From an uncultured delta proteobacterium (lineage in GTDB: Bacteria; Desulfobacterota; Binatia; Binatales; Binataceae), in assembly GCA_963711565.1 (NCBI GenBank), contig CAVQEQ010000004.1, positions 212,961 to 276,960 of the forward strand: a stretch of DNA of 64,000 nt, given 5' to 3'. Numbering within the stretch: position 1 is the stretch's first letter; each line of letters begins with the position of its first letter. Made by a program: the position numbers and the translations under genes. The notes beneath the pieces were generated by a model that searched no databases, was not told the DNA's origin, and worked only from the letters and a program-made list of their open reading frames with translations. Shown in pieces: positions 7,464-61,948 of the stretch.

Positions 7464-8814
7464 CGATCAGGCAATCGTGCTGGTCGTCGACGACGACCAC
7501 GACATGGTCGCCGCGCTCAGCGACATCCTGCGCGAAGCCGGCTACCGTCCGCTGAGCGCGCATTCGGGCAATGAAGCGCTCGCGATCGTCGCGCGCGAAT
7601 CTCCCGACGTGCTGATCTCCGATCTCCGGATGGCCGGGATGAGCGGGCACGGACTGCAAGCCGAGCTGAAGCGAATCGCGCCCGATCTGCCCGTGATCAT
7701 CATCACCGCCTTCGGTTCGATTCAGACGGCGGTCGAGTCGATGAAGCTCGGCGCCTTCGATTACATCACCAAGCCCTTCAGCAACAGCGAGTTGCTGCTG
7801 CTCGTCGCGCGCGCGCTGGAAAATCGCGCCCTCCGAAGTGAAGTGAAGCGCCTGCGCATCGAGCTGGCGCGCAATCACGGCCTCGAAAATATTATCGCGT
7901 CGAGTCCGAAGATGACTGCGATGCTGAGCAAGCTCGCGCAGGTCGCCGACAGCAACGTCAGCGTGCTGATCACCGGCGAGAGCGGCACCGGCAAGGACCT
8001 GCTGGCGCGCGCGCTTCACTTCCAGAGCGCGCGCCACAGCGGCCCGTTCGTGCCCGTCAACTGCGCGGCGATTCCCGAGAGCCTCATCGAGAGCGAGCTG
8101 TTCGGACACGCGCGCGGCGCCTTCACCGACGCCAAGCAGAACAAGGTCGGCCTCTTCGTCGCCGCCAGCCACGGCACTCTCTTCCTCGACGAAATCGGCG
8201 AGATGCTCCCGACAGTCCAGGCCAAGCTGCTCCGAGTCATCGAGGACAAAAAAGTCCGCCCGCTCGGCGCGACCGGCGAGACGACCGTCGACGTCCGCGT
8301 CATCGCCGCCACCAACGCCGATTTGGAGAAAGCGGTCGCCGACGGCCGCTTCCGCTCCGATCTATTTTATCGCATCGCAACCGTCACGATGGCGGTGCCG
8401 CCGCTGCGCGACCGTCCCGAAGACATTCCGCTGCTGATCAAGCACTTCCTGATGCGCGCCGGCGCCGAGGCCGGCAAACCCCCGCCGAATCTCGACGCCG
8501 AAACGACGGATCTTCTCACGCACTATCGATGGCCCGGCAACATCCGCGAGCTGCAAAACGCGATTCAGCAGGCCGTCATCCTCTGCTCCGGCCCGCAGAT
8601 CACCCGCGCCGACCTGCCGAGCAGGATCACCGGCGACCACCACGCCCCGAATCACCTGGAAGAACTCGCGTCACGCCGAATGCCCCTGGAAGAAGTCGAA
8701 CGCCAATACGCCCGCGCCGTTCTGGCGTCGGTCAACAACCACCGCGGCGAAGCCGCCGCAATCCTGGGCGTCGACCGCAAAACCCTAACCCGCAAACTAG
8801 AAGACCCCGACTGA
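7429..8814 (+). CDS. Sigma-54-dependent response regulator (NtrC family: REC, AAA+ sigma54-activator and Fis-type HTH)
   Basis: REC domain: VLVVDDDHDMV...DLRMAGMSG. Walker A: GESGTGKDLLARALH. GAFTDA is present and ELFGHARGAF is the GAFTGA-like region. The C-terminal HTH is AAAILGVDRKTLTRKL. It overlaps the kinase gene by 35 nt. Confidence 0.85.
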   Translation: MSMDPVSSGTHSDQAIVLVVDDDHDMVAALSDILREAGYRPLSAHSGNEALAIVARESPDVLISDLRMAGMSGHGLQAELKRIAPDLPVIIITAFGSIQTAVESMKLGAFDYITKPFSNSELLLLVARALENRALRSEVKRLRIELARNHGLENIIASSPKMTAMLSKLAQVADSNVSVLITGESGTGKDLLARALHFQSARHSGPFVPVNCAAIPESLIESELFGHARGAFTDAKQNKVGLFVAASHGTLFLDEIGEMLPTVQAKLLRVIEDKKVRPLGATGETTVDVRVIAATNADLEKAVADGRFRSDLFYRIATVTMAVPPLRDRPEDIPLLIKHFLMRAGAEAGKPPPNLDAETTDLLTHYRWPGNIRELQNAIQQAVILCSGPQITRADLPSRITGDHHAPNHLEELASRRMPLEEVERQYARAVLASVNNHRGEAAAILGVDRKTLTRKLEDPD

Positions 8815-8883
8815 TTCGCGCTAGATTGGCGCCGCGCCCTCCTGAAGGTGCAGAAGACGCGAGGATGAAACCATTACTGGATC

Positions 8884-10263
8884 CTAAGCGTGTACAAAAT
8901 GCTCGATGACTTTCTTCGCGAACTGATCTACTAAGGGAGTAATTGTTACCGACGCTATCAACGACAAGGCAGCAACAGACGGGGCCCTGAATTTTTCAGC
9001 AGCTTTGATCTGCCGTCTTAGTTCCTCTCTCTGATGGCGGTAGAACTCGGCCCAATCTTTGGCTGTAGTGTTGGCCTTGTCAGGATTTACACTCGTCTCG
9101 AGCTCCCGCATGATATTTGAGGTCTGTCCACTAAACTCATTGAACCATTCTACATGCTGAAAGCGCGGGTCGTAGTCGCGGGTTCCCCTAAAAGCCTCTA
9201 CAGAACCTTCGGTAAACGGAGCTTGCTCGGGAAGCTGCGAAGCATTCTCTACAAGGGCGGTAGCGTCTAAATTCGGCTCGGCGACTGTTTTGCCAGAATC
9301 CTCCGTTTGGCTCATGGTGATGCCCCACAGAAGCATCTTGTCGCTATCCAGAAAATTCTTCCACTTCTCACCGAACCTAGCTATCAAATGTCCTAACTCT
9401 GCTGCATGACTTTTGCCGGTTGGTGCTTCCAGCGTCTTAACCAAATCGGTAAGCCAGCCTTCCTCTTTCTTTAGTAGATCCAACCGCTTGGTTCTGCCGC
9501 GTAGCCAGCCAATCAGATAGGGTATCAAAATGAATGAGGCCAGATAGGAAATGAGGATGATCGGTAATATCAACGGAAATTGAAGTGGAATGTTGGTATT
9601 TAGAAAGCTAGCACTTTCTCTATTCGGGTTAGGAAGAGTCCAGTAGAACAGTGCCAGGTATAAGGCAAAAGGAACCAACCCACCGAATTGCGCTACAAGA
9701 AAACGACTTCGGGTTCCTTCGTCCAAGTTCTCAGACGAAAGAGTTCCGACGATAACAGGCAAAGAAAGCGGCAAGCCCGCGACAGTGGACAAGAGCAGAG
9801 TGAGCTGGATAGTCCTAACCTCAAGCTCAGGCGATGAGATAGGATGTCTGAAGTATAGGATCGCGGCCACGATTGGATAGCCCAAGAAAGCCACGATCGA
9901 AAATAGCAAACCCAAAACCATGGTAATCGGATGCTTTAGTCCGAATTCGTTACCAGCCCACAGCGAGCGCAGTCCCCACTCGGTCTCACTCGAACCAAGA
10001 AATCCCCAGAGAATACCCGTGACGATCACACCCAGCTGAGCGCCGGCGAAAACTAGAGCCATTAGAGCCACACTGCCGAAGCCGCTCAGTAGGTAAATGA
10101 ACGAAAACATCCCGGCTGTCGAAAGCAAGATGGTTAACTCAGTAAAGGCGAAGGCATTGCTGGTCCGCAGGCCGTGTGTCGTGGCCTTCGATGTGAGCCG
10201 CGCGCTTGCGATCGCAAAAACGAAATACGCGAAGCAGAAGACGAGGAATCTAAGTAGATGCAT
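8884..10263 (-). CDS. Orphan integral membrane protein with about 8 TM segments and a ~190-aa soluble C-terminal domain; no family recognised
   Basis: A 459-aa ORF. Its GC content is visibly lower than the flanking DNA. Hydrophobic helices span residues 1-270, followed by a charged C-terminal domain. There is no motif I can assign. Confidence 0.5.
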   Translation of the reverse strand: MHLLRFLVFCFAYFVFAIASARLTSKATTHGLRTSNAFAFTELTILLSTAGMFSFIYLLSGFGSVALMALVFAGAQLGVIVTGILWGFLGSSETEWGLRSLWAGNEFGLKHPITMVLGLLFSIVAFLGYPIVAAILYFRHPISSPELEVRTIQLTLLLSTVAGLPLSLPVIVGTLSSENLDEGTRSRFLVAQFGGLVPFALYLALFYWTLPNPNRESASFLNTNIPLQFPLILPIILISYLASFILIPYLIGWLRGRTKRLDLLKKEEGWLTDLVKTLEAPTGKSHAAELGHLIARFGEKWKNFLDSDKMLLWGITMSQTEDSGKTVAEPNLDATALVENASQLPEQAPFTEGSVEAFRGTRDYDPRFQHVEWFNEFSGQTSNIMRELETSVNPDKANTTAKDWAEFYRHQREELRRQIKAAEKFRAPSVAALSLIASVTITPLVDQFAKKVIEHFVHA

Positions 10264-10441
10264 CTTTTTTTCCGAACAGGCCCCCTTGTTCGCAAAACTG
10301 TCGAGGCGGTAGATTCTACGTTTTATTGTTCAAGTTTGTAAACACCGGTCGCTGCTTCCGTTAACAACCCGATTGCATCTTCGCAACGAATTCTGTCGAC
10401 AGCAAAATCCTGTCCGCAAACTCGAAGACGCCGACACCTAT

Positions 10442-11692
10442 TCAATTATTGGAATAATTCTTACCAATATATAAAGTGAAAGTGCGCATTTTCGAATTTA
10501 GCTCTTTGCCGAGATCGCCGCGTCGCGTTACCTCGATTCGCTCGAGGCCCAGCCACGACGCCATTGTGACCAGCTCGCGCATCAGCGGTTCCGCCACCGC
10601 GCGCGGCCGCACGCCGGGCTCGCTATGCGCGCCCTGCACGAGCAGCGTCCGCGTTGCACGATCGGATTTCAGATCGACGCGCGCGACCAGCCGGTCCCCG
10701 AGCAGGAACGGCAGCACATAGTATCCGTACTTGCGCTTCGCCAACGGAGTGTAGATCTCGATTCGATAATGGAAGCCGAAAATTCTCTCCGTGCGCGCGC
10801 GCTCCCACACCAGCGAGTCGAACGGAGAGAGCAGGGCGCGCGCCTCCAGCCTGCGCGGCGACTTCGCCTCGCGATGGACGTACGCCGGCTCCCGCCATCC
10901 TTCGACCCTAACCGGAGTCAACTCTCCCGTCTCGACGAGTTCCCTGATGCGCTGCCTGCCGGGAGTCAGGCGGATGCGAAAATAATCGCAAAGATCTTTC
11001 TCCGTGCCGACGCCAAGCGCGCGCGCCGCGGTTCGCATCAGCTCGCGCTGGGCGTCTTCGCGCGCGGGAGTCGGCATCGCGAGCACTCGCGCCGGGATAA
11101 CTCGCTCCGGCAGATCGTACAGCCGCTCGAAGCCGCGACGTCCCGCCGCCGCGACTCGACCCGCGGCGAACAGCGCCTCGAGCGCGTGCTTGCCGTCACT
11201 CCATCCCCACCATCCGCCCTTGCTCGCACCCGCGCCGGTAATCTCGCGAGCCGCGAGCGGGCCGCGCTCGCGGATCTCATCGAGCGCCGCCTGCATGAAG
11301 CCGGGGCGGCTGCGATTGAGACGCCCAAAAATGTCCTCGTTCTTGTCAGCCGCCTGCGCCATCCGCCAGCGCAGCAAGGGATGCATTTCGAACGGCATCA
11401 ACGACGCCATGTGCCCCCAATATTCGAACAGCTCGCGCTTGGCCGGCGCGCCGAGCCACGACGAGTCGAGCAGTTCCGGTGCGTAGTTGCCGAGGCGCGA
11501 AAAAAGCGGCATGTAATGCGATCGCACCAGCACGTTGACCGAATCGATTTGCAACAGCCCGATCTGCGCGATGACGCGTCGCAAATGCCGGCGGTCGAGA
11601 CGCCCGGACGGCCGCGGCTCCGCAAACCCCTGCGCCGCAAGCGCAATCCGTCGCGCTTCATCCGCCGAGATTTTCTCGATTCTCCCGCTCAT
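10442..11692 (-). CDS. Winged-helix DNA glycosylase of the YcaQ/AlkZ family (DUF1006; interstrand-crosslink repair)
   Basis: RKYGYYVLPFLLGDRLVARVDLKSDR and WLGLERIEV resemble the C-terminal core of the YcaQ/AlkZ family. The likely start is MSGRIEK at 11692. Confidence 0.6.
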   Translation of the reverse strand: MSGRIEKISADEARRIALAAQGFAEPRPSGRLDRRHLRRVIAQIGLLQIDSVNVLVRSHYMPLFSRLGNYAPELLDSSWLGAPAKRELFEYWGHMASLMPFEMHPLLRWRMAQAADKNEDIFGRLNRSRPGFMQAALDEIRERGPLAAREITGAGASKGGWWGWSDGKHALEALFAAGRVAAAGRRGFERLYDLPERVIPARVLAMPTPAREDAQRELMRTAARALGVGTEKDLCDYFRIRLTPGRQRIRELVETGELTPVRVEGWREPAYVHREAKSPRRLEARALLSPFDSLVWERARTERIFGFHYRIEIYTPLAKRKYGYYVLPFLLGDRLVARVDLKSDRATRTLLVQGAHSEPGVRPRAVAEPLMRELVTMASWLGLERIEVTRRGDLGKELNSKMRTFTLYIGKNYSNN

Positions 11693-11923
11693 AGCGCGGC
11701 CCGTTTCCACGTTCTGTCGCTGACGCAAGCAAAAAGATTAGTCCTAAATGTCCATGGTATCCTTGAAATCCGACGACTTCCCCCGCGAAACTTCAGCCAA
11801 CAAATTCGCCGCAGAGCGTCGTCCCTGAGTGCAAATCAGCGGCGCTTCCAAAAATGTTTCAGTGGGTGGCTACGATCTGTTATGTTTGAGGCCTTCCAAA
11901 CGTAGCGTCACATTGAATGGGAG

Positions 11924-12982
11924 GTGGGTGTCGTGAAGGAATCGGCACGTTTCCAATTTCCAACATCCGGAAGCTTTTTGGGATCGCACTACGCGAGTTT
12001 TTCCCGGGCTGCCGAAATTGCGGCTAGTCTCCAATCGAATATCTCGATAGGCAATTCCATCTTAGCAGCTAAGTATCTTTCTCCCCCCGCGTACTTACGA
12101 AATCTTGATGTCTTCTCGACATTAGGTGCAATGACGGAGTCTTTCGAGGCGACGCGCCGGAGTATTGAGTCCTTTTCCCATGTAGCCGAGATCCCGGCCG
12201 GCCTCCGATCGACTATCTCGATAGGCAATTCCTTTTTAGCAGACAGGTATCTATCGGCCCCTGCATACTTTCAACATCTCGATGTTCTCTCGGCTTTCGA
12301 TGTGGTGACGAAGTCCTTTCATGCGACGCGCCAGATGATCGAGGCCTTTGACAGCTGCAGAAATCTGATGGACGAATTCCGTCAGTACGAAGAAACGATA
12401 GCGACAAATGCCGAAAAGCTGGGATCTCTTGGATGGACGATCCCAATGGACGCCACCATTCCAGATTGTATGCGTCTACTCGAAAGGAGCTCGAATTCCG
12501 AAACAGCGGACACGGCATTTACGGCATTTTATAACGCAGACGAGCGCGCTGCCTATTTGGCATTGAAGGAAAGGCTTCTTGCAGAAACCGAGCTAGCGAT
12601 GTGGCGAGAAGATCTGATCACAGCCCTCGCAAGGTTCGAACACGATGATTACCTCAGCTGCGTAAGCGTACTTCTTCCTAGAGTTGAAGGTTTCTTAGCG
12701 ACCAAAGGCAAGGAACCTAGATTCTACATGAAGGGAGCACGAGAGCGCTTCTTCGCGCAAAAACTGAACACCGCCGATAAGTCGCCGCTAAACGACGCTC
12801 TTTGGTGTTCCGTCAGGGCTTTTGTCGATCGTCTGTACGAGCCTGTAGACTTTACAGATCAGGTTCAGCTCACCAATCGATTGAATAGACATGCTTGTGT
12901 TCATGGACGCGGCAACTACAAACACACGCAAGCAGACTGCTTGCGCCTGTTACAAGCGCTAGACACTTTGTCATCCTTGTGA
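11924..12982 (+). CDS. Orphan protein containing an internal ~58-aa tandem duplication; low GC
   Basis: A 352-aa ORF. Residues ~28-85 and ~86-143 are about 60% identical (EIAASLQSNISIGNSILAAKYLSPPAYLRNLDV versus EIPAGLRSTISIGNSFLADRYLSAPAYFQHLDV). At the nucleotide level the duplication is 11990-12160 versus 12166-12340. No known domain was found. Confidence 0.45.
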   Translation: MGVVKESARFQFPTSGSFLGSHYASFSRAAEIAASLQSNISIGNSILAAKYLSPPAYLRNLDVFSTLGAMTESFEATRRSIESFSHVAEIPAGLRSTISIGNSFLADRYLSAPAYFQHLDVLSAFDVVTKSFHATRQMIEAFDSCRNLMDEFRQYEETIATNAEKLGSLGWTIPMDATIPDCMRLLERSSNSETADTAFTAFYNADERAAYLALKERLLAETELAMWREDLITALARFEHDDYLSCVSVLLPRVEGFLATKGKEPRFYMKGARERFFAQKLNTADKSPLNDALWCSVRAFVDRLYEPVDFTDQVQLTNRLNRHACVHGRGNYKHTQADCLRLLQALDTLSSL

Positions 12983-21392: not shown

Positions 21393-21514
21393 CAGGGACG
21401 AAGAGCCGGGATTCTTCGCTTCGCGCTGAATGACACGAAAATACTGGGTGCAGGGCTCAGCCCTGCCGAAGGAAGCGTGAAACCCACCGCGGGTTTCACA
21501 TTCGATAAAGCGAT
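21393..21514 (+). repeat. Structured intergenic repeat, family 1, copy B
   Basis: cagggacgaagagccgggattcttcgcttcgcgctgaatgacacgaaaatACTGGGTGCAGGGCTCAGCCCTGCCGAAGGAAGCGTGAAACCCACCGCGGGTTTCACATTCGATAAAGCGATT. The first hairpin carries a compensatory GGGG/CCCC to GGGC/GCCC change. Confidence 0.8.
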
Positions 21515-22680
21515 TATGCCTTGCTACAAACGTAAATCGCCGCCGGCTGGCCGAGTACCGATACGCGAATGATCTTGCTCGGCGCGATCTTGCGCGTGCG
21601 CTCGAGCTCGCGCATCAGCCGCCACTCCAACGTCAGCATCACCATCATGCCGCCGCTCCTGAGCACCCGCGCGAACTCTTTGAACCACAGTGGATACAGC
21701 TTTCGATTCTCGCCGTGCGAGCCGTAGCGCAGTCCCCACGGCAAGTTGGTGACGATTTTACTTACACTCGCGTCGCCGAGCGGCAGCGCCCCAGCGTCCC
21801 AGTTTTCGAGCTGGATTGGCTTGTAGCGCGTGCCGACGTTGACGCGCGCCGCCGCGAGCGCCGCATGATCGCGATCGCTGCCCAGCAGCATTGCGTACCG
21901 TCCCAGATGGGCCCGCTCGATCAATATCGTGCCCGCGCCGCAGAACGGATCGAGCGCCACGTCGTCCTCGCGCGGCCCGGACAGCCACGCGAGCGCCGCC
22001 GCACTCGACGCGCGGAGCGACGCCGGGCGATGGGCACTCTTGTACTCGCGATGCCGCATCTTGTCGTCGCTGAGCCGCACGGTAAGAAAAAACTCGGCGT
22101 CGATCATCGTCGCCCACAACTCAACGTCGGCGTCCTCTTCTTCCAGCCGCCAGGTGTGATCGCTGCGCTCGAGAATCCCGCGCTCGACCGCGCGCTGAAA
22201 ATCGACGCGCCGATATTCATGCTCACCGGCCATCCTGGCGATCACGCGGAACTTGAGCCTGCGGCCCGCGCGCGTCCCCGGCGAGACTTTGACGCGCGCC
22301 GCCAGCGCCGCCTCGACCAGCGGCGCCTCGCGCGACGCGCCGCGAATCTTGTCCAGTTCTTTGTTCTCCGGCCCGATAGCGGCGCGGTAGCCGGCCAGTC
22401 CGAACAGATCTTCAGCCGTGCGCAGTACGGCCAGCTTCTCGGCCGCCGGCGCGAAAAAAATCGTCATCCCGGCGCGATCGGGCACCACGCGCCGCGTGAT
22501 CTCTCTCGCGCCGCTGATTCGGCCCGCTATCTCGTCAGCCGCGATTCCCTCGAACCCCGGCTGCGTATGCGCGATGTAGAGATTAGGGCCAAAGCGTAGC
22601 GGATGCGGATGCGCGCGCTCGGGCGACGCCGCCTTGCGATCGCGCCCGGTATTTCGATACGTCTGGCGCGCGCTAATCAA
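21514..22680 (-). CDS. THUMP-domain class I SAM-dependent RNA methyltransferase (RlmL/Trm14-like)
   Basis: DPFCGAGTILIERA is the SAM-binding motif I. NLPWG is motif IV of N6-A/N2-G methyltransferases. The N-terminal region is THUMP-like. Confidence 0.65.
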   Translation of the reverse strand: MISARQTYRNTGRDRKAASPERAHPHPLRFGPNLYIAHTQPGFEGIAADEIAGRISGAREITRRVVPDRAGMTIFFAPAAEKLAVLRTAEDLFGLAGYRAAIGPENKELDKIRGASREAPLVEAALAARVKVSPGTRAGRRLKFRVIARMAGEHEYRRVDFQRAVERGILERSDHTWRLEEEDADVELWATMIDAEFFLTVRLSDDKMRHREYKSAHRPASLRASSAAALAWLSGPREDDVALDPFCGAGTILIERAHLGRYAMLLGSDRDHAALAAARVNVGTRYKPIQLENWDAGALPLGDASVSKIVTNLPWGLRYGSHGENRKLYPLWFKEFARVLRSGGMMVMLTLEWRLMRELERTRKIAPSKIIRVSVLGQPAAIYVCSKA

Positions 22681-35352: not shown

Positions 35353-35430
35353 GAATACTGGGTGCAGGGGTCACCCCTGCCGAAGGAAGCGTGAAACCCA
35401 CCGCGGGGTTCACATTCAATAAAGTGGACG
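35353..35430 (+). repeat. Structured intergenic repeat, family 1, copy C (core only), in the proB-proA spacer
   Basis: aatACTGGGTGCAGGGGTCACCCCTGCCGAAGGAAGCGTGAAACCCACCGCGGGGTTCACATTCAATAAAGTGGAC. Confidence 0.8.
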
Positions 35431-54140: not shown

Positions 54141-54142
54141 GA

Positions 54143-54220
54143 ACACTGGGTGCAGGGGTCACCCCTGCCGAAGGAAGCGTGAAACCCACCGCGGGTTTCA
54201 CATTCAATCAAGTGATTTCA
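54143..54220 (+). repeat. Structured intergenic repeat, family 1, copy E
   Basis: ACACTGGGTGCAGGGGTCACCCCTGCCGAAGGAAGCGTGAAACCCACCGCGGGTTTCACATTCAATCAAGTGATTTCAC. Confidence 0.8.
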
Positions 54221-55842: not shown

Positions 55843-57255
55843 CTAGAAGTCTATCGCTTCCCCATCCGCCGCCAAAGCCGCCTGCATGATCGCCTCCGAC
55901 ATCGTCGGATGCGGATGCGCGGTCTTCCCAATTTCCGTCACCGTCGTCTCGAGCGCCTTCCCAAGCACGACCTCCGAAATGATATCGGTCGCCGCGTGTC
56001 CGATTATCTGGCATCCGATCACTTCGCCGTATTGCTTGGTCGCGACGATCTTCACAAATCCCGCCGTCTCGCCAATCGCCACCGCCTTGCCCATAGCACG
56101 AAACGGAATCTTGCCGACCTTTACCTCGATTCCGCGCGCCTTCGCCTCCGCCTCGCTCAGTCCCACCGTCGCCACTTCCGGCTCGCAGTAGATACACGCC
56201 GGAATCGCGAGCAGGTCGAAGCTCGGCTCGCGTACGCCCGCCATTATTTCCACCGCCGCGATTCCCTCCGAGCTCGCCTTATGCGCCAGCAGCGGCGGCC
56301 GGATCACGTCGCCGATCGAGTAGATACTCGGCACTTTGGTCTGGAACGAATCGTTCACCTTGATAAACCCGCCGCGCTCCAGCTCGATCCCAAGTTTCTC
56401 CAGCCCGACGTTCATGCTGAGCGGCGTCCGCCCAACGGCGACCAGCACCACCTCTGCCTCGACCGATTTTTCCCCGCCGTCGGCCGAGACCGTGACCGAC
56501 CACAACTCGCCCTTGCGCGCCATCGACTTGTATCCATGCCCAAGCATTACGGTGATTCCGCGTTTGACGAACGCGCGCCGCAACTCCTCGGCGACCTCCA
56601 CGTCCATGCCCGGCAGCATCTGCTTTTCCAGCTCGACGATCGTGACCTTGGCCCCGAACGCGCTGTAGAAATATCCGAACTCGGCCCCTATCGCGCCCGC
56701 CCCGATCACGACGACGCTCGCCGGCATCTTGTCGAGCACCAGCGCCTCGTGGCTGGTAACGACGCCGTCGCCGACTTTCATCCCGGGAAACAGTTTCTCC
56801 CCAGACCCGGCCGCAATCAGAATCCTCTCGCCCTCGAGCACGCCCACGGATGGCGCCGCCTTGCCCTCGACCTGTTTGAGGGTGACGGAATGCGGCCCGG
56901 TGATCGTCGCATCAGCCTCGAAGTAATCGATCTTGTTTTTCCGAAAAAGATAAAGCACGCCCTTGGACAGCTTCTCCGCCGCCGCCCGCGAGCGCGCAAT
57001 CACTTTCGCAAAATCAAACCGAACCTCGCCAACTTCGATCCCATGCTCCTTGGAAGCCCCGCGAATCGTATCCATCGCGCCGGCGGAGCTAAGCAGCGCC
57101 TTCGACGGGATGCATCCCCAGTTGAGGCATACGCCCCCAGGCCGATCCCGCTCAATCACCGCGACGCGCATCTTCAACTGCGCCGCCCGAATCGCCGCAA
57201 CATACCCGCCAGGCCCGGAACCAATCACAACAAGGTCATACCGAGAATTTTCCAA
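55843..57255 (-). CDS. lpdA: Dihydrolipoyl dehydrogenase (E3)
   Basis: GSGPGGYVAAIRAAQLG is the FAD motif. The redox-active disulfide GVCLNWGCIPSKAL and the C-terminal HAHPTMSEA are present. Confidence 0.9.
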   Translation of the reverse strand: MENSRYDLVVIGSGPGGYVAAIRAAQLKMRVAVIERDRPGGVCLNWGCIPSKALLSSAGAMDTIRGASKEHGIEVGEVRFDFAKVIARSRAAAEKLSKGVLYLFRKNKIDYFEADATITGPHSVTLKQVEGKAAPSVGVLEGERILIAAGSGEKLFPGMKVGDGVVTSHEALVLDKMPASVVVIGAGAIGAEFGYFYSAFGAKVTIVELEKQMLPGMDVEVAEELRRAFVKRGITVMLGHGYKSMARKGELWSVTVSADGGEKSVEAEVVLVAVGRTPLSMNVGLEKLGIELERGGFIKVNDSFQTKVPSIYSIGDVIRPPLLAHKASSEGIAAVEIMAGVREPSFDLLAIPACIYCEPEVATVGLSEAEAKARGIEVKVGKIPFRAMGKAVAIGETAGFVKIVATKQYGEVIGCQIIGHAATDIISEVVLGKALETTVTEIGKTAHPHPTMSEAIMQAALAADGEAIDF

Positions 57256-57371
57256 GATGAAGTCCTTCCAAATAATTTACTCATTATTGTCCGAATGTGG
57301 GTACCGAGTAAGGGCGGGCCACTATGGACCAACCGGCAAAGTTCGGTGAAGATACCACTTGAGGTTAGGTA

Positions 57372-58244
57372 ATGACCGACTTCGTAATTCGTTCCATCGA
57401 GGACGTACAAAGACTGTGGCTCAAGGTTCGGGAAGTGCCAAGTCGAACCGAGGGACGCAAGCATCACCATGAAGAGGAGTACTGCCTGGGAGTTTATCTG
57501 TCGGCCCTTGGCCGGAATGGGTTTTTGAATTACCCGTTCACACTGAAGCGGGGTGAGTCGTCGAACCACTTCGTTCTGAAAGCGAAATCTGGCGAGGTCG
57601 TCGGGCTGCAGGTAACAAGTGCCTCCGAACCGTGGCTTCAGGGCGAAATGTCCAGCGCCATTAGAAAGTATCTGCGTGCGGAATTCACCACTCGCACTTT
57701 CGGATGGGTTGGCGACGAAGCGGAAAAGCAGTGGTGCGGTCTTATCCGCGGCGCGATTGAACTAGCGAAATTACGCCGGTTCGCGCCGGCTGCGCGTCAC
57801 GATCTGCTCGTCTATGACGATACGCCGCTAGCCGCAGTCGATCGTCGCAAGGTCATTGCCGCCCTCGATCCCTGGGTCAGAGAACTAAAATCCGATACTC
57901 CCACGCTGGGTCGAATCTCGATCATAGTTTCGCTCGACGTGCTTTTCGACGTTGGCGGACTATCCCGGATTCTGCCCTATGTTCATTGGTCCGCTCCTGA
58001 TCTTGACGAGACTCCGATGCAGAGTTTTTCTGAACGAGTCGAGTTGGCGGGTAGGGTGGAAGTAGAGCGAGCCATCAGAGAGCCATCGGAAGATCGCATT
58101 CCCGCAGCGAAAAATTCAGCGCCCGCCTACTACGTCAGCAGCAACGGCCGCATCGTAAAACGAACCGCTGAAGGTCGCCGCTTTGAGGTGCGAATCAAGG
58201 AGAACGGGGGCGAAATCATAGTTCGAGAACTGCACTCCGCATGA
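57372..58244 (+). CDS. Orphan 290-aa protein, possible partner or antitoxin of the downstream zeta-like kinase
   Basis: Based on ORF integrity only. GC is lower. Its stop directly abuts the zeta-like ORF in the same frame. Confidence 0.4.
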   Translation: MTDFVIRSIEDVQRLWLKVREVPSRTEGRKHHHEEEYCLGVYLSALGRNGFLNYPFTLKRGESSNHFVLKAKSGEVVGLQVTSASEPWLQGEMSSAIRKYLRAEFTTRTFGWVGDEAEKQWCGLIRGAIELAKLRRFAPAARHDLLVYDDTPLAAVDRRKVIAALDPWVRELKSDTPTLGRISIIVSLDVLFDVGGLSRILPYVHWSAPDLDETPMQSFSERVELAGRVEVERAIREPSEDRIPAAKNSAPAYYVSSNGRIVKRTAEGRRFEVRIKENGGEIIVRELHSA

Positions 58245-58841
58245 CGCAAAGCCCCCTGGCTGTGGCTGATAGCAGGCCCGAACGGAAGCGGGAAAAGCAC
58301 CTACGCTCCGAACCTAACGTCAGTAGTCGAAGAAATCGTAAGGCCGGACGAACTCGCCTACGAACTGTCCCCGGATAAGCCTGAAAGTGTCGCGCTGAAA
58401 GCTGGACGGCTGGCGATCAACCGTATCGAGAGCCTGCTCGAACAGAAGCGGAGTTCCGCCGTTGAAACGACTCTTTCCGGTCGATTCCATCTCGACGCTG
58501 CACAGCGGGCCAAATCCGGAGGCTGGAACGTCGGGATTGTCTATATCGGACTCAGCAGCCCAACGGTGGCGATGAAACGCGTGCTCCTGCGGAAGCTCAG
58601 AGGCGGTCATTACGTGCCACCGGAGGACGTTCGACGCCGCTATCGGAGGAGCCTCGCGAACTTGGCGGTCATTTCCAAGATCGCTGACAGGCTTGTGGTC
58701 CTGGATAACTCTTCTTCGCGAACGCCAATGAAACGACTGTTTGAGACAGACCGCGGACAGATCGTCTTCCGGCATCGGTCTCTGCCGAAGTGGCTGATCG
58801 GCGCCTTGAATCCAATTCTGACAAGTCAACCAAAGAGGTAG
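58245..58841 (+). CDS. Zeta-toxin-like P-loop kinase (COG4185 'predicted ABC-type ATPase' family); start codon unresolved
   Basis: The frame continuing after the upstream stop encodes WLWLIAGPNGSGKSTYAPNL (P-loop), then ...ETTLSG... and ...IVYIGLSSPTVAMKRVLLRKLRGGHYVPPEDVRRRYRRSLANL, the zeta-toxin C-terminal region. The 58320-58829 minus-strand track ORF is the antisense artefact of this gene. Confidence 0.55.
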   Translation, partial: RKAPWLWLIAGPNGSGKSTYAPNLTSVVEEIVRPDELAYELSPDKPESVALKAGRLAINRIESLLEQKRSSAVETTLSGRFHLDAAQRAKSGGWNVGIVYIGLSSPTVAMKRVLLRKLRGGHYVPPEDVRRRYRRSLANLAVISKIADRLVVLDNSSSRTPMKRLFETDRGQIVFRHRSLPKWLIGALNPILTSQPKR

Positions 58842-59036
58842 AACTCGAGCTTTATTTCAAAAGGCTCAGGGATGGACTGTTTAGCGTGAAGCTTTCGCGC
58901 CCGCCGTACTAACAATCCGGTACGGTTACCCAGGACACTCCTCAATCGCCGGCCGCGCCCGCAACTCAACTGGCGACAACCAGACCTATAGTCGCGGTAC
59001 AAGCATGCCAGCTAAACTCGCCGCGAGGTTTGCAAA

Positions 59037-59519
59037 ATGAATCCTAACGGCTTGGGCAGCTGGATCGGCGACTGGGTGTGGAGCCTGCCGTTGATCGTGC
59101 TAACCGTCGTCATCCACGTATGCGGCCTGGCGGTCATCGGCGAAAGAGTTGTCGTTGCTGTGGGCGAGTCCGTCGATCGCCGCCGCTTCATGCTCAAATT
59201 CGCCGTCGTGATGGGCGCGACCTCGTTGCTTGCCACCCTCCTGCATGCAATTGAGGGAGGCATTTGGGCGGCCGCGTACCGTTTCCTTGGCGCCCTGCCG
59301 GACAACAGGACGGCGATGCTCTATTCGATCAGTGCGATGACGACCTATGGCCACGCGAACCTGTACCTGGAAAATCGCTGGCAATTGATGGGCGCGTTGG
59401 AGGCGCTGAACGGGGTGCTGCTCTTCGGCCTGACCACGGCGTTTCTGTTCTCGATGATCCAAACGATATGGCCGCTTCGCAGTAGAGAACTACACCGGGA
59501 TAGGAGCACGATTCAATGA
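59037..59519 (+). CDS. Small membrane protein with a pore-loop-like segment; possible minimal 2-TM ion-channel-like protein
   Basis: TM1 is WVWSLPLIVLTVVIHVCGLAVIG. A re-entrant-like segment SISAMTTYGHANL is loosely similar to the K-channel TxGYG filter. TM2 is GVLLFGLTTAFLFSMIQTIW. Confidence 0.4.
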   Translation: MNPNGLGSWIGDWVWSLPLIVLTVVIHVCGLAVIGERVVVAVGESVDRRRFMLKFAVVMGATSLLATLLHAIEGGIWAAAYRFLGALPDNRTAMLYSISAMTTYGHANLYLENRWQLMGALEALNGVLLFGLTTAFLFSMIQTIWPLRSRELHRDRSTIQ

Positions 59520-60550
59520 GTAAGCCGATCGTCAACCTTTGTCGAATCGTGGCCGCGGCAGTATTGATGCTTTGCGTGCTGAGTCTAACCGCTCATGCGC
59601 AAGCCGCGGCTGACCCGTTGCCGTCATGGAACGAAGGACCCGCCAAAAATGCAATCATCAAATTGGTTACTGCCACTACTACAGCGGGCAGCGCAGACTT
59701 CGTCGCTCCTGGCGATCGATTTGCCACATTCGATCAGGACGGCACCCTGTGGGTCGAGCAACCTGTCTATACGCAAGTCGTATTTTCGCTGGATCGAGTC
59801 GTCGCGCTGGCGCCGGATCATCCGGGATGGAAGACGGTTGAGCCGTTCAAGTCGGTGATCGCCGGCGATCGCGCGGCGATGGCGAAGTTCACTACCAGGG
59901 ACCTCGAGAAAATCGTCTTCGCCACTCATACCGGGATGACTACTGGCGATTACACGGCACTCGTAAAGGACTGGATCGCGAAAGCGCGCGACCCGCGCTG
60001 GCATCGACCGTTCACCGACCTGGTTTACCAACCGATGCTCGAACTGATGCGCTATCTGCGCGCCAATGGTTACAATACCTACATCGTCACCGGCGGCGGT
60101 CAGGACTTTGTCCGCGCCTACGCCGATCATACCTACGGAATCCCGCCCGAACAAATCATAGGATCGGCGCTCGACACCGACTTCACTTACAATGATGCCG
60201 GCAAGGCGATACTCATGCGCCCGCCGAAGCTTCTGCTCAACAACAACTTCTCTGGCAAGCCCGAAGACATCTACCTGTTTATAGGACGCCATCCCCAAGC
60301 GGCGTTCGGCAACTCAACGGGTGACCGCGAGATGCTCGAATACACTCAGGCAGGCGGCAAAGGCGCACTCATGATGCTGGTGTTACACGACGATCCGGCG
60401 CGTGAGTACGCTTACGGCCCGGCTGAAGGATTGCCCGCGAGCAAGGTCGGCACCTTTACTCAAGCGCTCTACGACGAAGCTATGAGCAAAGGCTGGAACG
60501 TGATCAGTATGAAGAAGGACTGGAAGCGGATTTTCAGCTTCGAGAAGTAG
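59516..60550 (+). CDS. Secreted HAD-superfamily hydrolase
   Basis: A signal peptide is present. FDQDGTLW is HAD motif I (DxDGT). A motif II Thr follows and the C-terminal GNSTGDREML is motif IV. Confidence 0.7.
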   Translation: MSKPIVNLCRIVAAAVLMLCVLSLTAHAQAAADPLPSWNEGPAKNAIIKLVTATTTAGSADFVAPGDRFATFDQDGTLWVEQPVYTQVVFSLDRVVALAPDHPGWKTVEPFKSVIAGDRAAMAKFTTRDLEKIVFATHTGMTTGDYTALVKDWIAKARDPRWHRPFTDLVYQPMLELMRYLRANGYNTYIVTGGGQDFVRAYADHTYGIPPEQIIGSALDTDFTYNDAGKAILMRPPKLLLNNNFSGKPEDIYLFIGRHPQAAFGNSTGDREMLEYTQAGGKGALMMLVLHDDPAREYAYGPAEGLPASKVGTFTQALYDEAMSKGWNVISMKKDWKRIFSFEK

Positions 60551-60559
60551 GGTGCTGCT

Positions 60560-61948
60560 TCAAAGCAGCAGGCTCGAGGGGTTCTCAAGGAAGCGCTTCA
60601 GTTCTTGCAGGAATCTTCCCGCTACTACGCCATCGACTATGCGATGGTCGAACGATCCCGTCATCATCATCGTCTTGCCGACGGCTAGCTGGCCATTGCG
60701 AACTACCGGGCGATCCTTGATAGCACTTACAGCCAGAATCGCGGCTTGCGGCGGAACGATCACGGCGGCGAAGTGCTCGATGCCCAGCATTCCCATGTTA
60801 GAGATTGAAAACGTCGCGCCCGACAGCTCATCCGACGTGAAACCGCCGCGGCTCGACTTCGCGACCAGTCGATGCGCCGTGCGTGAGATCTCCAGCAGCG
60901 ACAACCGCTCGCATTCGCGAATCACCGGCAGGATCAACCCCTCCTCGACCGCGACTGCCACTCCTATGTTGACGTTGGGATGAATGACGATGCCTTCGTC
61001 CTCGTAGCTCGCGTTGATCCGCGGATAGCGGCCGAGGGCGAGCGCGCACGCCTTCACGATGACATCGTTGTAGGTGATCGCCTCTTCGAACATCTCGGTC
61101 GCTTCGAGCGAGTCCTTCAAGCGCACCGCATCTTCCATCGCCACTTCGACGGTGACATAGAAATGCGGAATCTCGCGCTTCGACTGGGCCATCCGCTTGG
61201 CAATCGTCTTGCGCATCGCCGACAGTTCTTCGCGCGAACCGGGCGCGCCCTCGCGCGGCGACACCAGCCGGCGGAACTTGAAGAGTTGCTGCTCGCGGAT
61301 AAAGTTGTCGATGTCGCGCTTGGTCACTCGCCCTTCGGGTCCGCTGCCGCGCACGTGAGCGATATCGACTCCCGCCTCCTCGGCCGCGCGGCGCGCAAGC
61401 GGAGACGCGCGCAGCTTGTGCCCGTCGCCCGCTTCGGAGTCAGCCGCGGGGGCCGGCGGCTCAGGCTCCGGCGGCGCGGCGATCGCGGTCGGTGCGGCAC
61501 TCGGATTCGCGGACATCGCCGGATGCACGTGTAAATCGCGGGCGGAGCCGTCGGTCACGACGGCGGCCGGCGCGATCGACTTCTTCGGCGCGGCTTTCGG
61601 TTTTATCGCGATCGGCTTTGGAGGCTGCTCGGTTGCTGCGGCTTCAGCGCCCGGATCTTCCATCGCCGCGGCCGAAACCGGCTTGGCCTCGCCCTTGGCT
61701 TCCTTCGCGCCCGCCGATTTCATCAGTGCGATTACGGCGCCGACCGGCGCGCTCTCGCCCTCGTTCAGTTTGATCTGGTCGAGCACGCCTTCTTCGAACG
61801 ACTCGAGCACCATGTCGGCCTTGTCGGTCTCGACTTCGGCGATCGCTTCGCCGCGCGCGATCTTGTCGCCGGGATGCTTGAGCCAGCGGAGGATCTTGCC
61901 TTCCTCCATCGTGTCCGAGAGCTTGGGCATCGTTATTTCGTTGCTCAT
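60560..61948 (-). CDS. pdhC: Dihydrolipoamide acetyltransferase (PDH E2)
   Basis: The lipoyl domain is EVETDKADMVLES. A PSBD (PLARRAAEEAGVDIAHVRGSGPEGRV) and the catalytic C-terminus DHRIVDG follow. Confidence 0.9.
   Translation of the reverse strand: MSNEITMPKLSDTMEEGKILRWLKHPGDKIARGEAIAEVETDKADMVLESFEEGVLDQIKLNEGESAPVGAVIALMKSAGAKEAKGEAKPVSAAAMEDPGAEAAATEQPPKPIAIKPKAAPKKSIAPAAVVTDGSARDLHVHPAMSANPSAAPTAIAAPPEPEPPAPAADSEAGDGHKLRASPLARRAAEEAGVDIAHVRGSGPEGRVTKRDIDNFIREQQLFKFRRLVSPREGAPGSREELSAMRKTIAKRMAQSKREIPHFYVTVEVAMEDAVRLKDSLEATEMFEEAITYNDVIVKACALALGRYPRINASYEDEGIVIHPNVNIGVAVAVEEGLILPVIRECERLSLLEISRTAHRLVAKSSRGGFTSDELSGATFSISNMGMLGIEHFAAVIVPPQAAILAVSAIKDRPVVRNGQLAVGKTMMMTGSFDHRIVDGVVAGRFLQELKRFLENPSSLLL

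Follow-up and report, generated by a model that had tools for sequence, protein, structure and literature searches.

A conserved pair of a zeta-toxin-like kinase and a two-domain partner between pdhC and lpdA of an uncultured Binatus bacterium, with a frameshift behind the kinase start

Here we have analysed a stretch of 64,000 nt (hereafter the window; contig CAVQEQ010000004.1 of assembly GCA_963711565.1, positions 212,961 to 276,960 of the forward strand) from an uncultured delta proteobacterium of the Binataceae, focusing on a gene pair that lies inside a core metabolic gene cluster and encodes a 290-aa partner protein and a P-loop kinase related to zeta toxins. The minus strand carries pdhA, pdhB and pdhC and then lpdA, lipB and lipA, and four plus-strand open reading frames (ORFs) lie between pdhC and lpdA: the partner gene, the kinase frame, a gene for a small membrane protein and a gene for a HAD-family hydrolase (Table 1). 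A protein identical to the 290-aa partner is recorded at NCBI for Candidatus Binatus (soil Binatus bacterium), an organism for which the only genomes are metagenome-assembled. Throughout, compared loci carry labels of the type L001 or L003, and compared proteins labels of the type P0004 or P0069.

Table 1. Features of the pdhC-lpdA region, in positions of the window
Feature	Position	Strand	Basis or remark
lpdA (dihydrolipoyl dehydrogenase), left flank	55843-57255	-	Pyr_redox_2 and Pyr_redox_dim on the identical L007 gene
Sigma-70-like promoter match 5' of the partner gene	57249-57276	+	weak, consensus only, 9/12 matches
Partner gene, 290 aa	57372-58244	+	N-domain, C-domain and TGA stop
Partner N-domain, aa 1-201	57372-57974	+	widespread family; window copy without P64, D65, E80 and the helix Lys
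Partner C-domain, aa 202-290 and TGA	57975-58244	+	hhalign to small stand-alone partners
Ancestral kinase ATG, within ATGA (58241-58244)	58241-58243	+	alignment with L001, L003 and L005
Kinase frame, 198 codons and stop, directly after the partner TGA and in the partner's frame	58245-58841	+	P-loop from 58272
C5 run with 1-nt insertion shifting the kinase frame	58252-58256	+	one extra base relative to L001, L003, L005 and L012
Antisense 169-aa ORF over the kinase, annotation artefact	58320-58829	-	sense strand carries a conserved protein family
160-aa protein with two transmembrane segments	59037-59519	+	17.8 bits to Ion_trans_2, under the 22.5 cut-off
344-aa HAD-family hydrolase with N-terminal signal-like segment	59516-60550	+	Pfam HAD 37.1 bits (cut-off 27), Hydrolase 33.3 bits
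pdhC (E2), right flank	60560-61948	-	Biotin_lipoyl, E3_binding and 2-oxoacid_dh on the identical L007 gene

The kinase belongs with the zeta toxins by both sequence and fold, as the original prediction had proposed. Its translated region passes the hidden Markov model of Pfam Zeta_toxin (PF06414) with 32.4 bits at a cut-off of 22.3, over profile positions 14-189 of 199, and the AlphaFold2 (AF2) model, with a predicted local distance difference test score (pLDDT) of 92, finds as its best Foldseek matches PezT (2p5t), zeta (3q8x and 1gvn) and AvrRxo1 (4z8q), at E values from 9e-8 to 6e-7. Conserved across the family are GPNGxGK(S/T), an Asp 18 positions beyond its Lys, ETT, GGH, the segment RRRYxRS, and DN; all 26 sequences compared have GPNGSGKS(T) and the Asp without exception, and so does the window. 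By its position and by published description (PMC6362051) this Asp may correspond to the catalytic zeta D67, PezT D66 and Rv0366c D36. The GTXR motif that binds UDP-N-acetylglucosamine (UNAG) in zeta (G117-T121; PMC6362051) and PezT is absent from the kinase family, in which the corresponding segment reads E-T-T-L-S-G-R/N/K with an Arg that is not invariant, and because of this absence the substrate is probably not UNAG. A PADLOC 2.0 scan of the kinase returned P-loop-level matches only (E >0.01), and no paper in the literature searched joins zeta toxins with COG4185.

What sets the kinase of the window apart is its start. Scanning from the partner TGA to the P-loop, we found no ATG, GTG or TTG in the kinase frame, which encodes ...WLWLIAGPNGSGKST...; the earlier observation of an ORF without a canonical start before the P-loop is thereby borne out. 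In four relatives with partners of ~70% identity (L001, L003, L005 and L012), the gene after the partner is a 199-aa kinase starting MTQSPWLWLIAGPNG, whose ATG overlaps the partner TGA as ATGA, so that the two genes lie in different frames. Junctions of this type prevail across the family: of 14 loci, 10 have an ATGA or GTGA overlap, one has TGATG and two have a gap of 4-5 nt. The ATG at 58241 of the window no longer reads into the kinase; a nonsense ORF of 45 codons starts there instead. Kinase codon 5 holds an insertion that yields a run of five C (C5) at the place of the in-frame CTCCC, GTCCC or GCCCT of the relatives.

The same C5 run occurs in four further assemblies from different samples, one NCBI metagenome-assembled genome (MAG) and three short-read Logan assemblies, which elsewhere differ from the window by 0-0.55% (99.5-100% identity); the insertion is thus a fixed, real mutation of the species and not an assembly error. 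Given the ATGA overlap, a single inserted base automatically brings the kinase into the partner's frame. The missing start, which had been read as a sign of fusion or of tight coupling to the partner, appears from this comparison to be a fixed 1-nt insertion, with no gene fusion, no recoding device and no special coupling. It had been suggested that 58240-58270 be checked for a frameshift or fusion; what lies there is a real insertion, and the genes are separate in relatives. We consider it very improbable that the start-less kinase is a homopolymer-indel artefact or part of one conventional fused protein. The lesion does fall within a homopolymer run, and several related long-read assemblies carry indel errors (L002/L011 and L006), yet a sequencing error at the junction is rejected by the presence of C5 in the window, in the NCBI MAG and in the three Logan assemblies, which come from different runs, and a single fused partner-kinase protein is rejected by the relatives, whose genes are separate, in different frames and joined by the ATGA overlap.

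The long-read MAG contigs of relatives (L002/L011, L006, L012 and L025) hold many fragmented genes and homopolymer indels; L002, for example, is affected in its lpdA, lipA and Mla genes, and the L006 kinase has an A-run deletion. Unlike that of the window, frameshifts in those records are not to be taken at face value.

Annotations of this kinase diverge, and the divergence goes back to the 1-nt indel: in the NCBI record a 'zeta toxin family protein' of 193 aa starts at the CTG at 58260 (P0067), whereas the Logan gene calls give the antisense ORF instead of the kinase (L008 4142-4597 and L009 1707-2162). The antisense frame over the kinase, already described as an artefact in the original prediction, is indeed present in the ORF list (Table 1). 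Current annotations of this kinase thus disagree and are unreliable.

The partner gives no match as a whole: the full 290-aa protein has none in Pfam, NCBIfam, PADLOC, PHROG or PDB profiles, and its 66 homologues all come from Binatia MAGs or soil metagenomes. Distant relatives of the kinase reveal how it is built. All four of the distant kinase homologues that we examined have an upstream protein that overlaps the kinase start and carries the motif AGxPIY...G.LVK..PDGRRFEV...G.E..V..L; these proteins measure 79 aa (L027, Chroococcidiopsis), 89 aa (L030) and 98 aa (L036), the fourth being cut by the contig end (L035), and the small-partner versions overlap the kinase by 4-25 nt. In hhalign, the 79-aa protein of L027 aligns to partner residues ~202-290 with a probability of 95% (E 3.9e-8) and the 89-aa protein of L030 with 97.9% (E 5.9e-13). 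The small stand-alone cognates have no Pfam or NCBIfam match. On account of the hhalign result and of the motif shared by the upstream proteins of distant homologues, this C-terminal domain of ~80-90 aa (the C-domain) appears to be the cognate found throughout the kinase family. By analogy with known antitoxins, it is a putative kinase-binding and neutralising domain, and in the window all of its conserved residues are intact. As to the antitoxins that might have been expected, neither a family match nor an epsilon or PezA chain among the Foldseek PDB matches points to epsilon/PezA likeness of the partner. Of the earlier suggestion that the partner founds an undescribed family, the part that stands is that it falls into no annotated family; a single large new antitoxin family it is not, since it combines the small cognate domain with a separate, widespread N-terminal domain.

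That N-terminal domain (the N-domain) has a much wider distribution than the pair. A profile search of 1.84 billion representatives returned 998 clusters (~1000, counted at 50% identity), including many 220-250-aa proteins that match only positions ~7-220, whereas a word-indexed homologue search with the same profile had found five stand-alone members only. The domain has no Pfam, NCBIfam or PADLOC model and no PDB sequence match, and stand-alone N-domain proteins have no PADLOC match. Among the best 150 of the 998 profile-search hits, on which our census of fusions is based, it is joined to NTP_transf_2/MntA-like domains (two cases), HEPN_AbiU2, an AbiEii-like region and Mrr_cat, and it forms the C-terminus of a 922-aa TIR-containing protein. 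The family motif is VPxRTEGR...ERY...ESPDF...GLEVTEA...K...LLIYD. In the AF2 model the elements follow the order alpha-beta-beta-beta-alpha-beta (H31-48, E56-60, E66-71, E76-83, helices, E142-149), and the family keeps E35, P64-D65, E80 and, in a helix further on, a Lys, with a Thr at the position of the ExK Lys. Owing to this element order and to the conserved E35, P64-D65, E80 and Lys, the modelled domain is possibly restriction-endonuclease-like, of the PD-(D/E)xK type.

In the window this putative active site appears to be degenerate. The copy has S64, N65 and Q80 and a 2-residue deletion that removes the Lys, at positions 96-98% conserved in 49 diverse homologues, and it is from the loss of P64, D65, E80 and Lys that we call the site degenerate; all other conserved positions of the 49-member alignment are kept. 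The closest relative with an intact kinase (P0004, in L001) lacks only the Asp in its N-domain.

Stand-alone N-domain proteins turned up in two further settings. A 224-aa member lies in a defence-type island (L031 1181-6366) with SLATT_4 and SMODS, SIR2_2-like, DUF488 and DUF4007 proteins. A two-gene cassette between murG and murB/murC-ddl-ftsQ of the dcw cluster recurs in two contigs that are not related to each other, one belonging to Candidatus Ratteibacteria (L033 1589-3073 and L034 3312-4777); in it, an unannotated protein of ~200-220 aa is followed by a stand-alone N-domain protein of ~255 aa. Like the pair of the window, this is a small cassette within a core operon.

The combination of these two proteins could also be read as a nucleic-acid processing or repair pair, a nuclease N-domain with a polynucleotide-kinase-like enzyme, rather than as a toxin-antitoxin (TA) module. 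The polynucleotide kinase of Clostridium thermocellum has the lowest root-mean-square deviation of the Foldseek matches, 3.2-3.6 Å (TM-score normalised by target 0.66-0.69), the N-domain presents an E/PD/E/K-type residue set in the element order given above, and the kinase has ETTLSG(R) where GTXR would be. We nonetheless hold this reading to be improbable: distant kinase homologues pair with 79-98-aa proteins that have no N-domain, the N-domain is readily attached to toxin, antitoxin and effector domains of unrelated kinds, the distribution is patchy with frequent decay and hotspot or prophage-like settings, and toxins head both the Pfam and the fold matches.

Across lineages, 14 of 16 genome loci have the kinase as the next gene after the partner, which upholds the earlier view of a conserved two-gene module. 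As in a type II TA operon, the genes are adjacent and co-oriented, the putative antitoxin comes first, they overlap, and they are kept as a pair; in the window, the further expectation that both genes be intact and translatable fails, the kinase having no in-frame start. Several loci have decayed in other ways. In L013 an intact partner accompanies a kinase stub of 12 residues; L020 has a C-terminally truncated partner, no kinase at all and, close by, an RHS toxin gene; and in L026 the partner is cut to ~100 aa and the invariant GGH of the kinase has become GGQ (His to Gln). Patchy decay, tolerated toxin loss and toxin mutation alongside partner loss form the pattern of chromosomal TA, although each is a single case.

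Two neighbourhoods of distant homologues may be mentioned here. At L035 768-2749, a distant kinase homologue with its small partner is followed by a TumE and HVO_A0114 pair and a serine recombinase, which suggests a mobile cluster of TA-type modules. The cyanobacterial small-partner and kinase pair (L027 1509-3594 and L036 502-2624) lies a few genes downstream of Sipho_Gp157, suggesting a prophage-like setting.

Taken together, we think it rather probable that the pair is a TA-like module of the zeta/PezT superfamily with a composite partner, disabled or nearly so in this species by the fixed frameshift and by the residue losses in the N-domain. In an intact module, the partner of ~300 aa would be translated first and the 199-aa P-loop kinase would be translationally coupled to it via the ATGA stop/start overlap; the C-domain (~85 aa) would bind and neutralise the kinase, as epsilon and PezA do with zeta and PezT, and the N-domain (~200 aa) would serve as an accessory nucleic-acid-binding sensor, regulator or nuclease. 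In the window, the insertion at codon 5 would separate the kinase from its start, leaving it absent or made only in traces, by re-initiation at the CTG, by a +1 slip on CCC-C or by UGA read-through. The module here is probably a recently disabled remnant with its kinase switched off.

Several results weigh against this interpretation. The toxicity of the kinase, its substrate and its binding by the C-domain are predictions. A bacterial polynucleotide kinase (4gp7) reaches a Foldseek E of 9e-7, nearly equal to that of PezT, and a sequence search of the kinase against PDB gives P-loop-region matches only, without recovering zeta or PezT. For the N-domain, the best Foldseek match in PDB is an RPB5-like chain at E 2.5e-3, followed by SfsA at E 0.12, neither significant; the best match in BFVD is an Mrr-domain protein at E 0.013, also not significant; and hhalign of its profile with the Mrr_cat domain gives a probability of 0.2%, that is, no signal. 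All 198 codons of the kinase frame are intact, with each of the 25 residues found invariant among 26 family members still in place, its dN/dS relative to relatives is 0.10-0.15, not above that of intact pairs, and the branch of the window is not accelerated. NCBI annotates the kinase as a protein from the CTG, and the kinase may still be expressed and functional. Within the species, one synonymous and one non-synonymous kinase polymorphism are too sparse for a selection test.

On a rival reading the module is still active: the kinase would be made at a low, possibly regulated level from the shifted frame, by a +1 slip after the coupled ATG, by re-initiation at the CTG at 58260, or by UGA-C read-through to a 489-aa partner-kinase chain. 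In its favour, besides the intact frame and the low dN/dS, the C5 allele is fixed in five assemblies, the slip site AGC-CCC-C stands exactly where a +1 shift restores MTQSP/WLWL, and the kinase shares the frame of the partner, from which only one TGA, with a C after it, separates it. Ribosomes tend to shift by +1 at CCC-N sites, and UGA-C terminates translation weakly in E. coli. We still find an active module unlikely. A programmed site should be conserved, whereas C5 is absent in every relative examined; a programmed ribosomal frameshift or recoding site is not borne out, as neither the slippery site nor the shifted frame is kept in relatives, whose kinases are in frame without C5. No Shine-Dalgarno-like sequence precedes the CTG, the in-frame layout follows automatically from ATGA and one base, and the N-domain of the partner is degenerating at the same time. 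Neither dN/dS nor relative rates detected relaxed selection on the kinase, a result of little power at a dS near saturation (~1); with such a dS and only two within-species substitutions, a recent inactivation would leave no trace in these measures. A disabled module thus remains the reading that we prefer.

Placed beside known systems, this TA-like pair resembles PezAT and epsilon-zeta (PezT 2p5t; pSM19035 zeta 1gvn and 3q8x) in that the putative antitoxin gene comes first and the kinase second, tightly coupled, and in that Walker A is shared and an invariant Asp, possibly the catalytic one, follows strand 2. It differs in the size of the kinase (~199 aa as against ~250-290 aa), in the absence of GTXR, in the partner, which has a 200-aa N-domain where PezA has a helix-turn-helix and no detectable epsilon/PezA similarity, and, in the window, in the loss of the kinase start codon. 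AvrRxo1-ORF1:ORF2 (4z8q) gives the highest query-normalised TM-score, 0.66-0.68, at 17-20% identity; AvrRxo1 is also a zeta-fold kinase, it acts on a non-UNAG substrate, NAD, and is neutralised by a small adjacent protein, but it is a larger secreted effector (crystallised core ~330 aa) and its partner is unrelated. In EzeT, an antitoxin domain is followed by the kinase in a single polypeptide. A UGA read-through product of the window would match that layout, whereas the genes of the relatives are separate and the in-frame layout is a by-product of the insertion. EzeT is a single-chain zeta TA of E. coli (PMC4826407).

A further parallel is Rv0366c of the non-canonical PezAT pair Rv0366c-Rv0367c of M. 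tuberculosis, a short zeta-like toxin whose expression inhibits growth and which a protein encoded upstream neutralises (PMC6362051). A P-loop, Asp36 and Arg116 are present in it, and the GTXR motif for UNAG is missing (PMC6362051); short size and absent GTXR are thus common to both kinases, and Asp36 and Arg116, compared by published description, coincide with the invariant D36 and R117 here (P0069 numbering). Its antitoxin Rv0367c is composite as well: its N-terminal part binds DNA and its C-terminal part the toxin (PMC6362051), the N-terminus being a ribbon-helix-helix of a few dozen residues in contrast to the 200-aa enzyme-like domain described here. The ~200-aa N-domain itself is shared with MntA-type antitoxins and conflict proteins (P0243, P0267, P0234, P0244, P0256 and P0278), in which it precedes an antitoxin or effector domain while the C-terminal companion differs (an MntA-like nucleotidyltransferase, HEPN_AbiU2, AbiEii-like or Mrr_cat; with TIR it lies downstream); none of these MntA-type and other fusion proteins was seen adjoining a zeta-like kinase.

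From such company comes a more speculative idea, which we put forward tentatively and regard as rather doubtful: that the N-domain might be an undescribed, widespread module of conflict systems that, by sensing or cutting invader nucleic acid, makes the release of a zeta-type kinase conditional on infection. If this were true, the graft of the N-domain would turn a plain addiction module into a defence system. The interest of the locus lies in two domain families without models rather than in the crippled copy of the window: one is the conserved cognate domain (~80-90 aa) that goes with short COG4185-type zeta-like kinases and lacks a Pfam or NCBIfam model, and the other, to which the first is fused in Binatia, is without a model in these two databases and in PADLOC. 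Defining both would improve the annotation of TA and defence systems in metagenomes and would offer a handle on how antitoxins gain sensor and effector modules.

The position of the pair has a longer history than its composition suggests. The original prediction of four plus-strand ORFs in ~3.3 kb of lower-GC DNA between lpdA and pdhC agrees with the ORF list, and the block 57256-60555 has a GC of 0.568 against a mean of 0.616 (standard deviation 0.0225) of the 3.3-kb windows of the whole stretch, which places it at the 2nd percentile. The sole lower stretch, at ~8700-12900, reaches 0.556 over 3.3 kb. The companion claim of that prediction, that the pdh and lpd-lip genes are normally contiguous, likewise fits: the pdhC-lpdA gap is 134 nt in the out-group L043 (53% identical) and 727 nt in L038 (lpdA 86% identical), where it holds one different small ORF. 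We could not sustain the proposal that the four genes form one insert. Compared at the same junction, at least four other Binatus lineages (L001, L005, L012 and L025) have the pair adjoining lpdA-lipB-lipA-Mla, lpdA being 80-94% identical in relatives with this synteny, and there the GC of the pair is as low as in the window (0.54-0.57). As the pair is low-GC in relatives too, it appears to be old accessory cargo rather than a recent arrival. In L037, a pyridoxal phosphate (PLP) enzyme lies upstream of lpdA and the pair is absent, as it is in L038 and L043.

Of the marks of a recent island, only the deviating composition was found: the pair is not absent from the site in close relatives, no integrase or transposase ORF lies in 57256-60555, and the repeats there are short and at chance level. 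No Rfam match was found anywhere in the window, and no dedicated tRNA scan was made. A recent four-gene insertion is rejected, the pair and the two-transmembrane gene being syntenic in relatives and only the HAD gene species-specific. Other cargo at the site in relatives includes bestrophin-like, TetR, beta-lactamase, DUF3313 and GST genes. The operon was ancestrally contiguous, and its pdhC-lpdA junction has long been a hotspot for cargo, a clean example of a hotspot within a core metabolic operon. The small ORF in the gap of L038 (8404-8769, 121 aa, ...FIADFACPEARLVIELDGGHH...) resembles by eye a DUF559/Vsr-like endonuclease.

The two genes that follow the pair are unrelated neighbours of it. 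The third ORF does encode 160 aa with two transmembrane segments, as had been noted, but the 'pore-loop' label attached to it is weak, the Ion_trans_2 score staying under its cut-off; copies 77-80% identical stand beside pdhC in L005 and L012, and the gene is not part of the kinase module. The HAD label of the fourth gene is well founded by its Pfam score, and the protein also matches PHROG family 36311 (phrog_36311, function unknown) over its full length at 2.4e-28. This gene overlaps the two-transmembrane gene by 4 nt. At the pdhC-lpdA site, L007-L009 have it whereas L001, L005 and L012 do not, and it is thus species-specific there. Sigma-70-like sites, including the match 5' of the partner gene, are no more numerous in the region than in shuffled sequence.

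Elsewhere in the window, a two-hairpin element of ~72 nt (AATACTGGGTGCAGGGGTCACCCCTGCC...GTGAAACCCACCGCGGGTTTCAC...) occurs three times on the plus strand (54141-54214, 35353-35426 and 21440-21515), one copy lying between the convergent mlaA and lipA. It belongs to no Rfam family; a 31-nt core is identical in all three copies, and folded as RNA it reaches -32.1 kcal/mol (z -3.6). It could be a repetitive extragenic palindromic (REP)-like element, a terminator or a small RNA.

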